The notes: a model not told the origin generated them from the letters alone. A stretch of DNA of 64,000 nt from an uncultured Candidatus Saccharibacteria bacterium (GCA_964448095.1 CAYUUT010000004.1:14289-78288), one strand, 5' to 3'. Counted from the stretch's first letter, positions 2,021 through 47,045 are shown. Made by a program: numbers and translations.

Positions 2021-3079
2021 CTAGCTAAGAGGAATGAGGGTGTGGTGCCCCGAAAAATACTGAAGAGCCGTATCGGCATCCGTGGTTGTTATGATTGTCT
2101 GTTGGTTTTGCAGGTGATCAACCAGCGCATGACGACGGTGACCATCTAATTCCGAGAATACGTCGTCCAGCAGCAAAATTGGCTTCTGACCGCGGGCTCT
2201 CTCGATTAATCCCAGCTCAAAAATTTTAAGCGCCAACATCAGACTGCGAGTTTCGCCGCGTGAAGCGGCTTGGTTGACCAACCTTTTATTAATATAAAAA
2301 CTGATGTCCTCGCGGTGCGGGCCGTAAGCAGTAAAGCCGCGCTCAAAATCTAGCGCAGAACTGCTTTCCAGCTTTGACAGCAGTTTAGTGGAGTAATTAT
2401 CGGCAGGGAAGTGGCTGCTATAGTCCAGGCGGACACTGGTCCGAGCCTTGGCTATTTGGTTGTAGGTCCGGCTAAGTTGTTTATTGGTTTGGTCTATCAG
2501 TTCTTGCCGAGCCTGGACAATCTTGCCGCCCAGTTCGCTGAGGCGCAAATTCCAGGCAAAAAGCTGGCTCATCGCCCTGGCGGGGTCGTGCTTTAGCAAG
2601 GCATTGCGCTGAGCCAGAGCCCGTCGATACTGACTAGCTAAGCTTTTGAACTCTGGGCGGCTCCGCCCTAGCAGATCGTCGATATATTCGCGGCGTTGTT
2701 CTGGTCCCCGAGTAATTAACTGTAGGTGATTCGGCTCAAAAAAGACCAGCGGGATCGATCGCCCTAGGCTCAGGCGCTTAAATTTTTTGGCTTCAATCAT
2801 GAAGCTTTTATCGGTCGTTTCTTCCTGCTGCTGTTCAATTTTTACTGTCCGGTTTTGGTTACCAAAAAATCCATCAAGCCGAGCCCATGGTTGGCCAAAG
2901 CGTATTAGCTCCTGGTCTTTGGCTCTAAAAGAGCCGCCCCTAGCTAGTACCAATACGGCCTCCAGCAAGTTGGTTTTACCGCTGGCGTTTGGCCCGACAA
3001 CAATATTGACGCCCGGCTCGAATTCAAAAGACTCATCTTTATAAGAGCGGAAGTTTTGCAGACGTATATTATCTATCAC
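2021..3079 (-). CDS. recF: DNA replication and repair protein RecF
   Basis: N-terminus MIDNIRLQNFRSYKD...VVGPNASGKTNLLEAV (Walker A) and C-terminal LLLDDVFSELD (Walker B/signature) are typical RecF. Synteny with dnaA-dnaN. GTG start. Confidence 0.93.
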   Translation of the reverse strand: MIDNIRLQNFRSYKDESFEFEPGVNIVVGPNASGKTNLLEAVLVLARGGSFRAKDQELIRFGQPWARLDGFFGNQNRTVKIEQQQEETTDKSFMIEAKKFKRLSLGRSIPLVFFEPNHLQLITRGPEQRREYIDDLLGRSRPEFKSLASQYRRALAQRNALLKHDPARAMSQLFAWNLRLSELGGKIVQARQELIDQTNKQLSRTYNQIAKARTSVRLDYSSHFPADNYSTKLLSKLESSSALDFERGFTAYGPHREDISFYINKRLVNQAASRGETRSLMLALKIFELGLIERARGQKPILLLDDVFSELDGHRRHALVDHLQNQQTIITTTDADTALQYFSGHHTLIPLS

Positions 3080-3144
3080 ACTAGTAGGTTATAGGAAGAA
3101 TATCCAGCCTCAAAGCATTTTTGACTAATTGAAAATACTAGTGC

Positions 3145-3173
3145 TTGCATTTTTACAAGTTTTATAGTATTAT
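3145..3173 (+). promoter_or_regulatory. Candidate sigma70-type promoter (TTGCAT-17 nt-TATTAT) reading into the high-GC gene
   Basis: -35 TTGCAT at 3145-3150, 17-nt spacer, -10 TATTAT at 3168-3173. It sits in a 23% GC stretch (14/60 hand count of line 3121-3180) that abuts the GC-rich segment. Confidence 0.4.
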
Positions 3174-3242
3174 ATAGTCATCCATTGGTGCCTCCTCGGG
3201 GGTCACCCCTGGAAGTACCCCCTTCGATACAGGCGGTGAATC

Positions 3243-3728
3243 GTGAAGAATTCGACCATCTCTGCCCTGGTCGCCCTAGTAGCTGCCGCGTGTGTCCTCG
3301 CGACCACCGGCGGCGTCGCTCAGGCGGCACCCAAGGCCACCCCGTGGCCTTGGCAGATCCAGGCAACCTTCGCTGCACCACCGGCCGTCACGGCCGGAAA
3401 GACCGTGCCCTTCAAGGTCACGGCGACCAACACCGGGAAGGTGTCGGTCGACATCGACATCCTCATCCCCATCGGGGTCACAGTCACCAACGCCAACGCG
3501 TTGGGGATAAAGCCAGACCCCCAGGGCGCTTCGGTGGTGTCCTTCCGCTCTGTCCGTCCGCGCAAGAGCGTCAGCATCACGCTGAAGATCATCATCCCGG
3601 CCGACGCCACAGCGAACCCCGTCTGGTGCTACGACAGCGGGATTCGCTACGGCTACCTCACTGGTGCCTTCGGCGGCTGGAAGGTCGCTTCCATCGACGG
3701 CAACGTCTGCCCAGCAGTGCTGCGGTAG
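3243..3728 (+). CDS. Secreted DUF11/CARDB-like beta-sandwich protein encoded on a high-GC foreign segment
   Basis: GTG start. Signal peptide MKNSTISALVALVAAACVLATTGGVAQA|AP. GKTVPFKVTATNTGKVSVDIDILIPIGVTVTNANA resembles the DUF11 'conserved repeat domain' pattern. Third codon positions are almost all G/C in this frame. A GC-rich terminator follows. Hand-counted GC is 45/60 (3301-3360) and 38/60 (3481-3540), against about 30/60 in neighbouring dnaN. Confidence 0.7.
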   Translation: MKNSTISALVALVAAACVLATTGGVAQAAPKATPWPWQIQATFAAPPAVTAGKTVPFKVTATNTGKVSVDIDILIPIGVTVTNANALGIKPDPQGASVVSFRSVRPRKSVSITLKIIIPADATANPVWCYDSGIRYGYLTGAFGGWKVASIDGNVCPAVLR

Positions 3729-3754
3729 ACGAGAGAGGAAGGAGGTACGAACAC

Positions 3755-3793
3755 GGGCCCGACGACAGCGTCGTCGGGCCCGCTCTCTTTTTA
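3755..3793 (+). terminator. Rho-independent terminator (12-bp GC stem plus T-run)
   Basis: GGGCCCGACGAC (3755-3766), loop AGC, GTCGTCGGGCCC (3770-3781), followed by CTCTCTTTTTAT. It lies 27 nt after the stop of 3243..3728. Confidence 0.8.
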
Positions 3794-3801
3794 TCTTAGA
3801 A

Positions 3802-4893
3802 TTAGCTGCGCAACGGCATAACCAGGTGCAGGTATTCCGGCTCGCTGGCGCTACGGATAATGCACGGCTCCAGCTTGCCGTTAAAACAAAATTCTACTTC
3901 TTCCGAGCTGAAAGCCCCCAAGGCATCTATAAGATAGCGTGAATTAAGGGTGACCTCCCCGCCGCCGGCAACAACTGCAGGGGCAGTTGCGGTATTTTCG
4001 CCCAGCTGCGAAGCCACGGCATTAATGCTGACCTGCTTGGCGGCTTTATCCACTTTAACGGTGATGCTGCCGGCGCTCTCCCGGGCAAACAGACTGGAAA
4101 CCTTAGTGATGTTTATGAAGTCAGCGCGCTTTAGGCTGGCGGTAGTAGTGAACTTGGTGGGGATTAATTTGCGGTAATCCGGGTAGTTGCCTTCGATCAG
4201 CCGGGCTACTAGCGTCACATCACCAGCCTGGAAGAGCACTTGCTGGTCATCATGTGTGACCAGCACTTCTTTGTCAGTATCGTTAATTATCCGCAGCAAG
4301 TCATTAGCGGCGCTGGCCGGCAACAAAAAGTTAACTGGTGATTTACTTTTACCCAGCTTATACTCCGCCAGGCGGTAGCTATCCGTGGCCGCGGCAATAA
4401 CCTGGCTGCCATTGCTATGGAAATACACTCCAGTTAAAACTGGCCGCGAGTCGTCGTTGCTGGCAGAGAACACCACTTCGGATAGTGCTTTTTTAAAGTC
4501 CGCTGCCGCCAGTCTCCAGGTTGTGCCGCCGGTAATAGCCGGCATCACCGGGAATTCCTCGGCGCTCATACCGTTGATGGTTGACTGGTATTGGTCGGTG
4601 GTGATATTGAGTTTATTGTCGTTCAGCTCTAGTTTTAAAACACTGTCAGGCAAGCTACCAACGAAGTCCTGCATCAGCCTGGCCGGCACGGTAATTGAGC
4701 CTTCTTGTTCTATCTTAGAGCCAACAAAATGAGTTATCGCTATATCTAGGTTGGTAGCGGCGATACTAAGGCGATTATTGTCGGTTTTAAGCAGTACATT
4801 GGATAAAATTGGCAGGGTATTGCGGCTATTGGCGACTCTTGCAACTGTGCTTAAAGCTTTGGATAAGTTTTCCTGCGTAACTTGGAGTTTCAT
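3802..4893 (-). CDS. dnaN: DNA polymerase III subunit beta (sliding clamp)
   Basis: MKLQVTQENLSKALSTVARVANSRNTLPILSNVLL... is a typical DnaN N-terminus. About 363 aa, three-domain length, immediately downstream of dnaA. Confidence 0.95.
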   Translation of the reverse strand: MKLQVTQENLSKALSTVARVANSRNTLPILSNVLLKTDNNRLSIAATNLDIAITHFVGSKIEQEGSITVPARLMQDFVGSLPDSVLKLELNDNKLNITTDQYQSTINGMSAEEFPVMPAITGGTTWRLAAADFKKALSEVVFSASNDDSRPVLTGVYFHSNGSQVIAAATDSYRLAEYKLGKSKSPVNFLLPASAANDLLRIINDTDKEVLVTHDDQQVLFQAGDVTLVARLIEGNYPDYRKLIPTKFTTTASLKRADFINITKVSSLFARESAGSITVKVDKAAKQVSINAVASQLGENTATAPAVVAGGGEVTLNSRYLIDALGAFSSEEVEFCFNGKLEPCIIRSASEPEYLHLVMPLRS

Positions 4894-5156
4894 AAAATAA
4901 ATTCCTTTATGAATTAATTAGTTTATTAGTATTAATAGGGCCTGTGGTTAATGGGTATAAGATACTAGCCAACAACTTAAAAAGGGTCACTACAGGCTGT
5001 GGAGCCAAAACACTAAGCCGGTTAAAAGCTGTGGGGGAAATGCTTATAAAAAATACTTGACTTGTTAAGTATTTTTGGCCGGTTGCCATTTCCGAGTATA
5101 ACTTGCGGATTAACCCCAAACTATTCGCAACAAGGTCCACAGTTTCTGCACAAGTT
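4894..5156. other. dnaA-dnaN intergenic region with DnaA-box-like motifs and an AT-rich stretch (possible second oriC module / DUE)
   Basis: TGTGGTTAA at 4943-4951 (reverse complement TTAACCACA, 1 mismatch to TTATCCACA). TGTGGAG and TGTGGGGGAAA around 4999-5040. GGTCCACAG around 5135. Very AT-rich run 4894-4940 (ataaaataaattcctttatgaattaattagtttattagtattaat). Confidence 0.45.
5047..5076. repeat. Copy of the recurrent AT-rich palindrome (AAAAAAATACTTGAC-TT-GTTAAGTATTTTT)
   Basis: The core TACTTGACTTGTTAAGTA at 5054-5071 is the exact reverse complement of the copy at 12857-12874. Flanked by an A-run and a T-run. Confidence 0.8.
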
Positions 5157-6575
5157 TTAGGCATATATCCGCTCCCGTAGCTCAAGGACATTTTGTTTGA
5201 TAGGGCCGTCATAGTTAATCTCTCTCTCGATTTTGTCGACCGAGTGGATGGCGGTGGTGTGGTCTTTGCGGCCGAGTTCACGGGCAATTTTGGGGAAGCT
5301 CAAATGTAACTCCGAGCGCAGCATATACATCGCGACTTGGCGCGGGACAACAATATCTTTGTCGCGTTTGGGGCCGAGGATATCTTCCATAGAAATCTGG
5401 AAATGCTTGGCTGTGCGCTCAATGATCTGGTGGGCGTTGATGTGTTTGGGGCGGTTTTTGCTGCCTTCAAAGATGGCCGTCACAATCTGGATATCGGGTT
5501 GTACACCGCGCATTTCGCAGTAAGCCAGGACTTGGTTAAGGGCGCCTTCTAGCTCGCGGATATTGTTTTGCACGTGGCTGGCCAGAAACTCGACCACAGC
5601 AGGCGGCAGGTCAATTTCCTGAGAGCCGGCTTTCATTTGCAAAATTGCGCAACGAGTCTCGAAGTCGGGGGTTTGCATATCGATATTCATACCCATAGCA
5701 AAGCGGGAACGCAGCCGCTCTTCCAGGGTCGGGATGTCTTTGGGCGGCTTGTCGGAGCTCATAATAACCTGTTTATTGGCCTGGTGAAGGGCATTGAAAG
5801 TATGGAAGAACTCTTCCTGGACTCGTTCCTTGCCGGCCAAAAATTGCACGTCATCAACGATTAGTACATCGGCGCTGCGATAAAAACTGGCAAAATCCGA
5901 AGTATTTTTCTTAAAACGCAGAGCATCCACGAATTCCTGGACGAACTGTTCGGTTGAAGCGTAGATAATATTGGCCGACGGCTTAGAGGCCAGCACACTG
6001 TTACCCACAGCCTGTATTAGATGGGTTTTGCCAATTCCAACACCACCATAGATAAACAAAGGGTTATATTTTTTCCCGGGCTTGGCGGCAACGGCTTGGC
6101 AGGCGGCATAGGCTAGCTCGTTGCTGGACCCAACCACAAAATTATCAAAGGTATAGCGTTCATTAAGCCCTTGGCGGTAGGAGTGGGTGACATTAGCAAT
6201 GGTTTTTTTGGCCGGGCCGCCAATGGGCATTTGCCGTTCGGGGGCTTTTATGCCATTTGGCGCGCCCAGGACATCACTGTCGCTGGGGCGGAGCTGTGGT
6301 GAGACAGCGGTGTGGATCTTGTATTCAATTTGGTTGGGTTTGACGCCATTTTTGGCCAGAATTTCTAATAGTAGGTCGTTAAACTTCCGTTCCAGCTGGT
6401 TCTTAACAAAAATGTTGGGCACGCCAACTACAACGATGCCATCCTTATAACGAATTAGCTGGGTGTTTTTAAACCACGTGACATAATTACCGCGCGAAAC
6501 GCTCAGCTCAATTTCGCCCAAAACTGCTTGCCACAAAACCCCATCTTGCATATTTTTTGTCGTTGATCCCCGCAT
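5157..6575 (-). CDS. dnaA: Chromosomal replication initiator protein DnaA
   Basis: AAA+ motifs (LFIYGGVGIGKTHL, LIVDDVQFL) and the C-terminal DnaA-box-binding helix (RQVAMYMLRSELHLSFPKIARELGRKDHTTAIHSVDKI). The true start could be Met9 (6551). Confidence 0.95.
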   Translation of the reverse strand: MRGSTTKNMQDGVLWQAVLGEIELSVSRGNYVTWFKNTQLIRYKDGIVVVGVPNIFVKNQLERKFNDLLLEILAKNGVKPNQIEYKIHTAVSPQLRPSDSDVLGAPNGIKAPERQMPIGGPAKKTIANVTHSYRQGLNERYTFDNFVVGSSNELAYAACQAVAAKPGKKYNPLFIYGGVGIGKTHLIQAVGNSVLASKPSANIIYASTEQFVQEFVDALRFKKNTSDFASFYRSADVLIVDDVQFLAGKERVQEEFFHTFNALHQANKQVIMSSDKPPKDIPTLEERLRSRFAMGMNIDMQTPDFETRCAILQMKAGSQEIDLPPAVVEFLASHVQNNIRELEGALNQVLAYCEMRGVQPDIQIVTAIFEGSKNRPKHINAHQIIERTAKHFQISMEDILGPKRDKDIVVPRQVAMYMLRSELHLSFPKIARELGRKDHTTAIHSVDKIEREINYDGPIKQNVLELRERIYA

Positions 6576-6792
6576 TTAAGTTGTCTCAGTACCCTTACTA
6601 TAGAGAATGCCGAAGGGCTTTTCCACAGTTTCGACAAAAAACACTACAGTCCGGGGGCAAAAACGGCCGTAGAGAGAAAACTTGTACACAGCGACATTAC
6701 TAATCTGTTAATGTGTGGAAAAAAGTTGGCGATAAGTGGAAAACCTGCTAATATTTGTGGGTTAATATTGTGAATTTCACTCAAATTGAATT
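6576..6792. other. Candidate oriC: DnaA-box cluster between divergent dnaA and rpmH
   Basis: TTTTCCACA at 6619-6627. TTGTACACA at 6682-6690. TGTGGAAAA at 6714-6722 (reverse complement TTTTCCACA). AGTGGAAAA at 6735-6743. TGTGGGTTA at 6756-6764. Canonical position between dnaA and rpmH. Confidence 0.65.
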
Positions 6793-46469: not shown

Positions 46470-46660
46470 GTGGCCCAGTTTGTGCTAATATTAAAGTCCG
46501 TTAACAATTTGATTGCTGGAATCCGGTGTGAGTCCGGAACTGTGCCGCAACGGTAAGTCGCGAATGCGAACGAGTCCGATACAGCAAACACTAATAAGTG
46601 TCTCGCGCAAGACCAGGATTTATAGAATTTTATCCTTCTTGTAACGAGGCAAGGAGGATT
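46470..46660 (+). promoter_or_regulatory. Cobalamin (B12) riboswitch-like leader with SD-sequestering helix
   Basis: Core GGAATCCGGTGTGAGTCCGGAACTGTGCCGCAACGGTAAG (46518-46557) closely parallels the E. coli btuB leader GGGAATCCAGTGCGAATCTGGAGCTGACGCGCAGCGGTAAGG, recalled from memory. B12-box-like GAGTCCGATACAGC at 46572-46585. ATCCTTCTTG (46632-46641) can pair with CAAGGAGGAT (46650-46659), which contains the RBS. Confidence 0.7.
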
Positions 46661-46664
46661 TTTT

Positions 46665-47045
46665 ATGAGCCGAGTAGCTCTAACCAAAGTAAAAAAGTTA
46701 ATTATTACCAGCGTCGTTGTAATTACCGCAGCCGGCAGCATTACTGGCGCTGTGATTGCCAATTCGCCCAGCCACAAGGTAGGTACGACACTTAACGCCC
46801 AGCATCAAGTCACATATATTACTTATCGTGGTGAAAACGGCACGGACGCTCTAACGCTGCTAAAAAAGCATGCCCAGGTCCAGGTCAAACACTATTCCTT
46901 TGGCGACCTGGTCACGTCAATTAACGGCAGCACCGGCAACGGCCCCAAATACTGGACTTTTTACATTAACGGCAAAGAGGCTCAAGTTGGCGCGGGCTCA
47001 TATGTGACTAAAAATAGCGATACACTTTCATGGAAATTGCAGTAA
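46665..47045 (+). CDS. DUF4430-domain protein (transcobalamin-like fold; putative extracytoplasmic B12-binding protein)
   Basis: N-terminal TM/signal anchor. GTDALTLLKKHAQVQVKHYSFGDLVTSINGSTGNGPKYWTFYINGKEAQVGAGSYVTKNSDTLSWKL is the typical DUF4430 pattern. Strong RBS AAGGAGG. Confidence 0.75.
   Translation: MSRVALTKVKKLIITSVVVITAAGSITGAVIANSPSHKVGTTLNAQHQVTYITYRGENGTDALTLLKKHAQVQVKHYSFGDLVTSINGSTGNGPKYWTFYINGKEAQVGAGSYVTKNSDTLSWKLQ

Follow-up and report, generated by a model that had tools for sequence, protein, structure and literature searches.

A GC-rich single-gene insert between dnaN and recF, probably of recent horizontal origin, in a Candidatus Saccharimonadales population

Saccharibacteria are ultrasmall bacteria living on other bacteria. 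Here we describe a GC-rich (GC, guanine plus cytosine) segment carrying one open reading frame (ORF) of 161 codons, located between the replication genes dnaN and recF on a stretch of 64,000 nucleotides (hereafter the window) from an uncultured Candidatus Saccharibacteria bacterium (GCA_964448095.1 CAYUUT010000004.1:14289-78288). The nearest named dnaN homologues come from Candidatus Saccharimonadales or Saccharibacteria, so that the Saccharibacteria-type genome supposed by an initial annotation of this DNA is indeed that of a member of Saccharibacteria (Candidatus Saccharimonadales). The gene layout proposed there, recF, ORF and dnaN, is found again at the same coordinates. The features of the locus are the following, in window positions:

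2021-3079, minus strand: recF, intact, 352 aa, GTG start (ORF list; Pfam SMC_N/AAA families on an identical product)
3080-3093, minus strand: motif TATAACCTACTAGT kept from the native spacer, adjoining the recF GTG on its upstream side
3094-3177, no strand: AT-rich segment, 84 bp, GC 0.286, not present in the empty sites of relatives
3178-3242, plus strand: GC-rich leader, 65 nt, GC 0.60
3243-3728, plus strand: putatively foreign ORF, 161 aa, GTG start, GC 0.65, GC at third codon positions (GC3) 0.83
3243-3326, plus strand: predicted Sec-type signal peptide, residues 1-28, composed of MK, the hydrophobic core ISALVALVAAACVLA and GGVAQA/AP, the slash marking the cleavage site
3375-3614, plus strand: predicted DUF11/CARDB-like beta-sandwich core, residues ~45-124 (sub-threshold Pfam matches, alignment and AlphaFold2 (AF2) model)
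3754-3792, plus strand: intrinsic terminator of the ORF, stem 3754-3782, then tail CTCTCTTTTT
3783-3801, no strand: AT-rich tail, 19 bp, GC 0.263, from the hairpin to the dnaN stop, novel relative to the empty sites
3802-4893, minus strand: dnaN, intact, 363 aa, flanking host gene
5157-6575, minus strand: dnaA, to the right of dnaN, with rpmH (6793), rnpA, yidC and jag further right

The ORF is convergent to dnaN and divergent from recF, which shares 79% identity with its counterpart in the nearest relative. The separation of dnaN from recF announced by the initial annotation is real, a convergent gene and a strong hairpin now standing between them.

Composition sets this segment apart. Positions 3178-3800 have a GC content of 0.637 against 0.477 for the window, and the adjoining spacer (3080-3177), already described as AT-rich, has a GC content of 0.286. 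The GC core (3178-3782, 605 bp) reaches 0.648, and no other part of the 64 kb deviates so far in GC: in a sliding scan the top 486-bp interval is at 0.658 and the runner-up peak at 0.558. Within the ORF, GC at codon positions 1, 2 and 3 is 0.57, 0.54 and 0.83, and the GC3 of 0.833 lies 6.5 standard deviations (SD) above the 62 other window ORFs of at least 120 aa (mean 0.519, SD 0.048, maximum 0.639), in line with the almost exclusive G/C third positions noticed at first reading. Nearly all codons end in C or G (ATC 85% versus 32% in host genes, GTC 65% versus 29%), and GTT, CTT, TTA, AGT and TCA are absent. A codon score built on host relative synonymous codon usage does not separate the ORF from some native genes, whereas GC3 does. 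The GC3 > GC1 > GC2 pattern and the C/G-ending codons fit a genuine coding frame issued from a high-GC genome. Another frame of the same strand (3185-3799) holds a 204-aa ‘shadow’ ORF spanning the whole GC-rich segment; this Arg/Pro-rich frame with high GC at the first codon position is an artefact of GC-rich DNA, which length-based gene finders could mis-call as a gene.

The insert is absent from the orthologous site of the close relatives L005-L009, L013 and L093, where dnaN and recF are separated by 24-38 bp. The spacer measures 24 bp in L005 (dnaN 89% identical) and in L006/L007/L093 (87%), 38 bp in L008/L009 (83%) and 32 bp in L013 (83%). The empty site of L005 reads TAG-CGCGCCAAGCTATAACCTAGTAAA-GTG, and the motif TATAACCTACTAGT kept in the window corresponds to the half of the 24-bp spacer lying next to recF, in L005 (CTATAACCTAGTAAA) as in L006. 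On the dnaN side, relatives present a TAG stop followed by CGCGCCAAGC or CGCTTGAACC, while in the window the stop is TAA and TTCTAAGATAAAAAGAGAG comes after it. Since the nearest relatives have a spacer of 24-38 bp, the novel block amounts to 708 bp (3094-3801), made of the 84-bp AT-rich segment, the 605-bp GC core and the 19-bp AT-rich tail; the ~620 bp first attributed to the insertion must be revised. The AT-rich segment (3094-3177) has no further copy in the window or in the relatives. Its origin as ancestral spacer was considered and rejected, no homology being detected with longer native spacers beyond the ~12-nt recF-proximal motif.

Scanning the edges of the block for flanking direct or inverted repeats (target-site duplication) returned chance-level matches only, in agreement with the initial annotation, which had seen neither direct repeats nor a recombinase. 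No integrase, transposase or recombinase was found at the insert, nor any tRNA target for integration. Its foreign nature, proposed from the start, is supported by this comparison of sequences, in which the segment appears lineage-specific and missing from relatives with dnaN 83-89% identical.

The same arrangement was recovered elsewhere. An identical protein is encoded on contigs of five other assemblies (three ENA, one Logan and one JGI), always between recF and dnaN and never in another context. Both junctions are spanned at 99.9-100% identity in 5/5 of these assemblies, which come from at least three pipelines, and one of them (L003) differs from the window by two single-nucleotide polymorphisms (SNPs) inside recF. 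An apparent ‘variant’ (P0123) differs only in how the GTG start is rendered, namely as V; the protein is the same and its contig is 100% identical to the window. Because five further assemblies span both junctions, an assembly chimera is very unlikely.

Expression signals and predicted product of the ORF

A host-style promoter had been proposed at the 5′ edge of the GC-rich segment. Its hexamers, TTGCAT (3145-3150) and TATTAT (3168-3173), are present with a 17-nt spacing, face the ORF and lie inside the AT-rich segment, but this segment is not ancestral spacer and the pair was not called by a sigma-70 consensus scan (at least 4/6 matches per hexamer, spacing of 16-18 nt), its -35 matching at 3/6 positions and promoter rules in Saccharibacteria not being established. 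We presume that the AT-rich segment holds promoters for both the ORF and recF. In the GC-rich leader, AGGCGG, placed 7 nt ahead of the ORF's GTG, weakly resembles a Shine-Dalgarno sequence, and the leader shows no significant RNA structure (3178-3242, z -0.25). On its minus strand, GAGGAGG (3197-3191) is followed after 5 nt by ATG (3185-3183), GAT GAC and then the AT-rich boundary (3197-3177 for the whole). Judging from this succession, it may be what is left of a divergent neighbour gene of the donor, namely its ribosome-binding site and initial codons, cut off where the fragment ends; such a gene may have begun ATGGATGAC...

Downstream, the intrinsic terminator starts 26 nt past the stop codon of the ORF and consists of a 13-bp perfect stem with 11 G-C pairs and a 3-nt loop (folding free energy -33.4 kcal/mol, z -5.0). 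The terminator seen by the initial annotation (12-bp GC stem at 3755-3793) is thus found again, but with a 13-bp stem placed at 3754-3782. On the dnaN transcript the same hairpin has a free energy of -32.6 kcal/mol and is without U-tract. The hairpin and the 486 nt of antisense ORF probably lower read-through from dnaN to recF. As they separate recF from dnaN, recF would most likely rely on its own start signals in the AT-rich segment, presumably supplied by the latter together with the retained TATAACCT motif.

A TATAAC(C/T)T-like motif is conserved 6-9 nt before the recF start in the window (3080-3093) as well as in L005, L006, L008, L098, L099 and L103. It is not Shine-Dalgarno-like and could act as the -10 element of a recF transcript that is nearly leaderless.

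The N-terminus of the ORF product has the n, h and c regions and the hydropathy of a signal peptide ending AQA/AP, as initially proposed: the hydrophobic core of 15-20 residues shows a Kyte-Doolittle peak of 2.9 at residues 10-20, and an AXA motif follows, with small residues at -3 and -1 of the AQA/AP site, as in substrates of signal peptidase I. It contains no twin-arginine motif and no canonical lipobox. The predicted mature protein would have 133 aa, a mass of 13.9 kDa, an isoelectric point of 9.8 and two Cys (C129 and C156).

For the DUF11/CARDB-like motif of the initial annotation the picture is mixed. The core motif G-x-x-V-x-F-x-V-T-x-x-N-x-G ... I-P-x-G ... S-x-S-I-x-L (residues ~45-124) is in register with the DUF11-type fragments P0129-P0131, N63, G65, V67, P76, G78 and I112 being invariant. 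Yet Pfam scores stay under the cut-offs. Within residues 45-124 the sub-threshold matches are NPCBM_assoc/NEW3 (E 0.0015), DUF11 (E 0.0084) and DUF7507 (E 0.026); DUF11 (PF01345, residues 45-119) scores 16.9 bits against a gathering threshold of 24.6, and NPCBM_assoc/NEW3 (PF10633, residues 96-124 only) 19.1 against 24.4. NCBIfam, PADLOC and PHROGs gave no match to the 161-aa product. AF2 run on the single sequence produced an unusable model (predicted local distance difference test, pLDDT, 48.5); with a 5-sequence alignment, the core rises to pLDDT 56-80 with 5-6 beta strands. Foldseek against PDB returned nothing at E <= 1e-3 and generic sandwiches only (TM <= 0.40), the weak matches being of immunoglobulin/fibronectin III type: GH3 C-terminal domains, macroglobulin MG domains, TRAP subunits and a fibrillar-adhesin domain. 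The best PDB sequence match, a Dr-family fimbrial adhesin, is non-significant (E 0.06).

Homologues are scarce. A word-indexed search of 5.8 billion proteins retrieved only the protein itself, and exhaustive HMMER on 1.84 billion representatives added a single marginal match (P0002, E 9e-4). The latter is a 3274-aa giant adhesin with SprB repeats, DUF11 domains and a type IX secretion system (T9SS) sorting signal, to three DUF11 repeats of which the ORF aligns at 35% identity. A profile search including the P0002 repeats yielded five proteins in all, which besides the ORF are short DUF11-type fragments, one of them named as Saprospiraceae. Among ~15 billion proteins in total, only self-matches and remote DUF11 repeats were found. 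No match was obtained in 50,697 phage records, 72,556 plasmids and IMG/VR contigs, and a metagenome DNA scan found no copy of the ORF; this last negative is weak because the scan also missed a known positive JGI contig.

According to these searches and the model, the product is best described as a putative secreted, stand-alone DUF11-like beta-sandwich protein, orphan at full length. With the DUF11, CARDB-like and NEW3 domains of bacterial cell-surface proteins it shares the core motif, aligning at 35% identity to DUF11 repeats of the giant adhesin; its weak model is all-beta. It differs from them in being a single 133-aa domain and not a repeat in a large protein, in having a unique 40-residue C-terminal extension with two Cys and no anchor motif, and in remaining below every Pfam cut-off, without full-length homologue.

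The actinobacterial affinity suggested by the initial annotation was not recovered: no actinobacterial homologue appeared at any threshold used in the word-indexed, HMMER and profile searches, and the two remote matches that can be placed, the SprB/T9SS-type giant adhesin and the Saprospiraceae protein, are both Bacteroidota-type. With a GC3 of 0.83, the gene would come from a genome of roughly 63-67% GC, a range that fits many Actinobacteria, Proteobacteria, Deinococcota, Gemmatimonadota, Myxococcota and others. By itself, GC3 does not discriminate Actinobacteria from other high-GC soil phyla.

The dnaN-recF junction in related lineages

The spacing of dnaN and recF was surveyed at 160 loci, taken from the species representatives of GTDB and from JGI metagenomes and reduced to 133 unique junctions after removal of duplicates. 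They distribute as follows:

92/133 junctions: spacer of at most 50 bp
19/133 junctions: spacer of 51-150 bp, some with a hairpin after dnaN
19/133 junctions: insert of ~400-500 bp with a PF05635 (23S_rRNA_IVP, four-helix-bundle) gene, same strand
3/133 junctions: other cargo

The pair called conserved by the initial annotation is thus tight in most relatives but interrupted in 22/133 junctions, that is, cargo of some kind is present in ~17% of lineages. Because of this other cargo, the split of dnaN and recF is not exceptional in this class. Its composition is more particular: the GC excess over the locus does not exceed +0.044 in other cargo, versus +0.171 for the GC core here, and among the 133 junctions GC-deviant cargo is unique to this population.

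The most frequent occupant, a 23S rRNA-intervening-sequence (PF05635) gene of 114-144 aa, is patchy across clades. It was found in L014 (5093-5498), L010/L011, L015, L020, L026, L062, L064, L071 and L075, then in L076, L081, L084, L096, L104, L107 and others, and is apparently split by a frameshift in L031. It resembles our ORF in its slot, in being a single small gene and in its patchy distribution. However, the PF05635 gene shares the strand of dnaN and recF, is host-like or lower in GC (0.36-0.47) and encodes a cytoplasmic helical protein of a large known family, whereas the ORF is on the opposite strand, GC-deviant, orphan, and its product is predicted to be secreted.

The remaining cargo is diverse. 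L040 (3839-4560), and also L126 and L127, carry a PIN toxin and PhdYefM antitoxin pair on the opposite strand; their spacer measures 722 bp, and its equal length in the window is a coincidence. Two more distant relatives harbour ~2-kb cargo each. In L152 (3593-5860) a 142-aa membrane-anchored protein is accompanied by a 485-aa signal-peptide protein, alpha/beta-hydrolase-like with a GHSMGG lipase/esterase-type motif, and L153 (3593-5640) encodes a 565-aa membrane protein. Given the cargo of L152 and L153, exported proteins at this slot are not unique to the window.

Spacers of 118-126 bp (L098, L099/L100 and L103) contain a hairpin, e.g. AAGGAACCCCTTCGCGGTTCCTT, in the first ~45 nt past the dnaN stop. 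In some lineages dnaN and recF are therefore probably transcriptionally separated without any inserted gene.

The initial annotation had placed the insert at the highest-dosage position of the chromosome. Proximity to the origin is plausible: the order dnaA, rpmH, rnpA, yidC and jag is the canonical arrangement of an origin region, and DnaA-box-like 9-mers are enriched in the window (26 versus 13.2 expected), eight of them within 4046-6722, clustering around dnaA. The highest dosage is plausible from the gene order; the GC skew signal in the window is too weak for origin placement, and the window begins too near dnaA.

Weighing the origin of the insert

We consider it likely that the segment results from a recent, lineage-specific horizontal acquisition of a single gene in one soil-type Candidatus Saccharimonadales population. 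The 708-bp block (3094-3801) would have replaced ~10 bp of the ancestral 24-bp dnaN-recF spacer, its 605-bp core coming from an unsampled bacterium with a genomic GC of roughly 63-67%. This core would represent a complete small gene, with a short leader, the 161-codon ORF and a strong intrinsic terminator. Export by Sec and cleavage after AQA would leave a basic beta-sandwich protein of 13.9 kDa, formed by one domain that is DUF11-like in its core and probably has a disulfide in its C-terminal part; it is most likely a binding module at the cell surface. The ORF is probably transcribed from within the 84-bp AT-rich segment, which would have arrived or arisen with the insert. We suppose that the DNA entered by ComEC-dependent natural transformation and was integrated by illegitimate recombination; uptake followed by such recombination into a permissive intergenic site fits the absence of repeats, integrase and transposase. 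The dnaN-recF junction tolerates cargo of this sort, and in related lineages other small genes have settled there independently.

In Saccharibacteria natural transformation is ComEC-dependent, and the cultivated ones grow on Actinobacteria (PMC10633639). Transfers reported into genomes of the Candidate Phyla Radiation (CPR) comprise 84 events of 518-5,730 bp in 43 metagenome-assembled genomes (MAGs) (PMC10031880), and mammalian Saccharibacteria have acquired an arginine deiminase system (PMC8764695). Like these CPR/Patescibacteria fragments, the segment described here is foreign DNA in the sub-kb to kb range, in a reduced epibiont genome, often with a hypothetical protein (PMC10031880, PMC8764695). 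Those earlier events were detected via identity with partner genomes or phylogeny, whereas composition and empty sites serve here, and the dnaN-recF position is specific to the present case. Deviant composition and absence from close relatives also recall classical genomic islands or islets, from which the insert differs by the lack of a tRNA target, integrase, flanking direct repeats and mobility genes and by its content of a single gene.

Several points weigh against this acquisition as we picture it. Neither donor nor homologue was found, and for this reason transfer is deduced only from composition and phyletic absence. The six assemblies may derive from overlapping read sets and so may not be independent of each other. 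All copies are identical and so provide no evidence of purifying selection or expression. Every Pfam family falls below its cut-off, and the structure model is weak, with a mean pLDDT of 54 and the C-terminal 40 residues unmodelled. Finally, the promoter of the ORF fails the consensus scan, and the AT-rich flanks of the GC core find no explanation in this scheme.

A possibility, though an unlikely one, is host capture: the high-GC actinobacterium on which this epibiont lives would have supplied the gene, and the product would now act as an adhesin to it. It would agree with the growth of cultivated, naturally competent Saccharibacteria on Actinobacteria (PMC10633639), with a GC3 of 0.83 compatible with many Actinobacteria and with the resemblance of the predicted secreted product to adhesin domains. 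Heavy sampling of Actinobacteria has nevertheless left no homologue among the ~15 billion proteins, remote similarities can be placed only with Bacteroidota-type DUF11 repeats, and such a GC content is common to many soil phyla. Moreover, few hosts of environmental Saccharimonadales are known, and Jaffe et al. pointed out that evidence of transfer is lacking in those host-epibiont pairs which were profiled experimentally (PMC8406219). Host capture is attractive, its present support being GC content only. We hold as distinctly improbable the fuller scenario in which competence-acquired DNA of the own high-GC host would be kept as a secreted host-binding module, the dnaN-recF junction being a preferred landing and expression slot in Saccharimonadia.

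Delivery by a phage, a plasmid or another mobile element, the ORF being for example a moron or a cargo gene left after excision, is given only a slim chance. The AT-rich flanks, which match neither donor-like nor empty-site sequence, might be the trace of an intermediate vehicle, and the same slot holds mobile-type cargo (the PIN/Phd toxin-antitoxin) in other lineages; but integrase, transposase and att-like or inverted repeats are missing, and the phage records, plasmids, IMG/VR contigs, PHROGs and PADLOC gave no match. It is quite doubtful that the insertion, although real, brought inert DNA, with an unexpressed remnant awaiting deletion as its ORF. The orphan status, the lack of variation among copies on which selection could be assessed, the second open frame of 204 aa (open frames arise easily in GC-rich DNA) and the lack of a consensus promoter would agree with it. 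Against it stand a textbook GC3 periodicity, a signal peptide and a domain motif in register, the ORF's own terminator 26 nt past the stop, the streamlining of Saccharibacteria genomes and a gene intact in every copy. As for a chimera or contamination, in which a high-GC fragment would have been wrongly joined into a Saccharibacteria contig, the sharp compositional break, the lack of homologue elsewhere and the metagenomic origin could suggest it. This is very unlikely in our opinion: the junctions recur in the five other assemblies (MEGAHIT-style ENA, Logan and JGI), one of them with the 2 recF SNPs, the segment lies between two intact syntenic genes and not at a contig end, its edges have no repeats to mislead an assembler, and the ORF never occurs in another context.

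Considered as a horizontal acquisition, the insert would be an unusually clean, un-ameliorated piece of foreign DNA fixed in a streamlined and naturally competent epibiont, with an empty site resolved to the single nucleotide and, as cargo, one complete gene encoding a predicted exported protein. As it stands, it is one orphan gene, probably acquired by a known process. If the DNA did come from the host, the insert would document at the molecular level which host belongs to an uncultivated soil Saccharibacterium; a donor found in the same samples would directly link the latter to its partner, a link otherwise hard to obtain. The recurrent occupation of the textbook dnaN-recF junction is useful to know for annotation, and this junction may serve as a tolerated insertion site for genetics.

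Other features of the window and of related contigs

Between dnaA and dnaN, an 85-aa ORF without Pfam match (4907-5164, minus strand) overlaps the end of dnaA; an ORF of 79-83 aa is called at the equivalent position in L005, L006 and L010. Should this ORF be genuine, the gap between dnaA and dnaN is coding, and a location of the origin between dnaA and rpmH (6576-6792) becomes more likely. On the other side, recF is abutted by a weakly PEGA-like 205-aa gene (1402-2019), preceded by an NlpC/P60-like gene (110-1405). The DNA directly left of window position 1 is found in L012 (1-6871), where a type IV secretion system (T4SS)-like cluster (TrbL_3, PrgI, TraC-like and VirB4/TraG-type ATPase) and an 891-aa protein are encoded upstream of the NlpC/P60-like gene.

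Two contigs of the survey bear unexpected names. A Saccharibacteria-type dnaN-recF locus is present both in L022 (DATKKU010000027.1, titled ‘Candidatus Binatia bacterium’, dnaN 78% identical) and in L081 (DATLCF010000001.1, a 562-kb contig titled ‘Nevskiaceae bacterium’, dnaN 66% identical); these are probably mis-binned or mislabelled MAG contigs. Further along the window, a partial match to the cobalamin riboswitch (46518-46582, plus strand; 32.1 bits for a gathering score of 31.5, model positions 47-167) precedes an ORF at 46665-47045, an unexpected element for a reduced Saccharibacteria genome.

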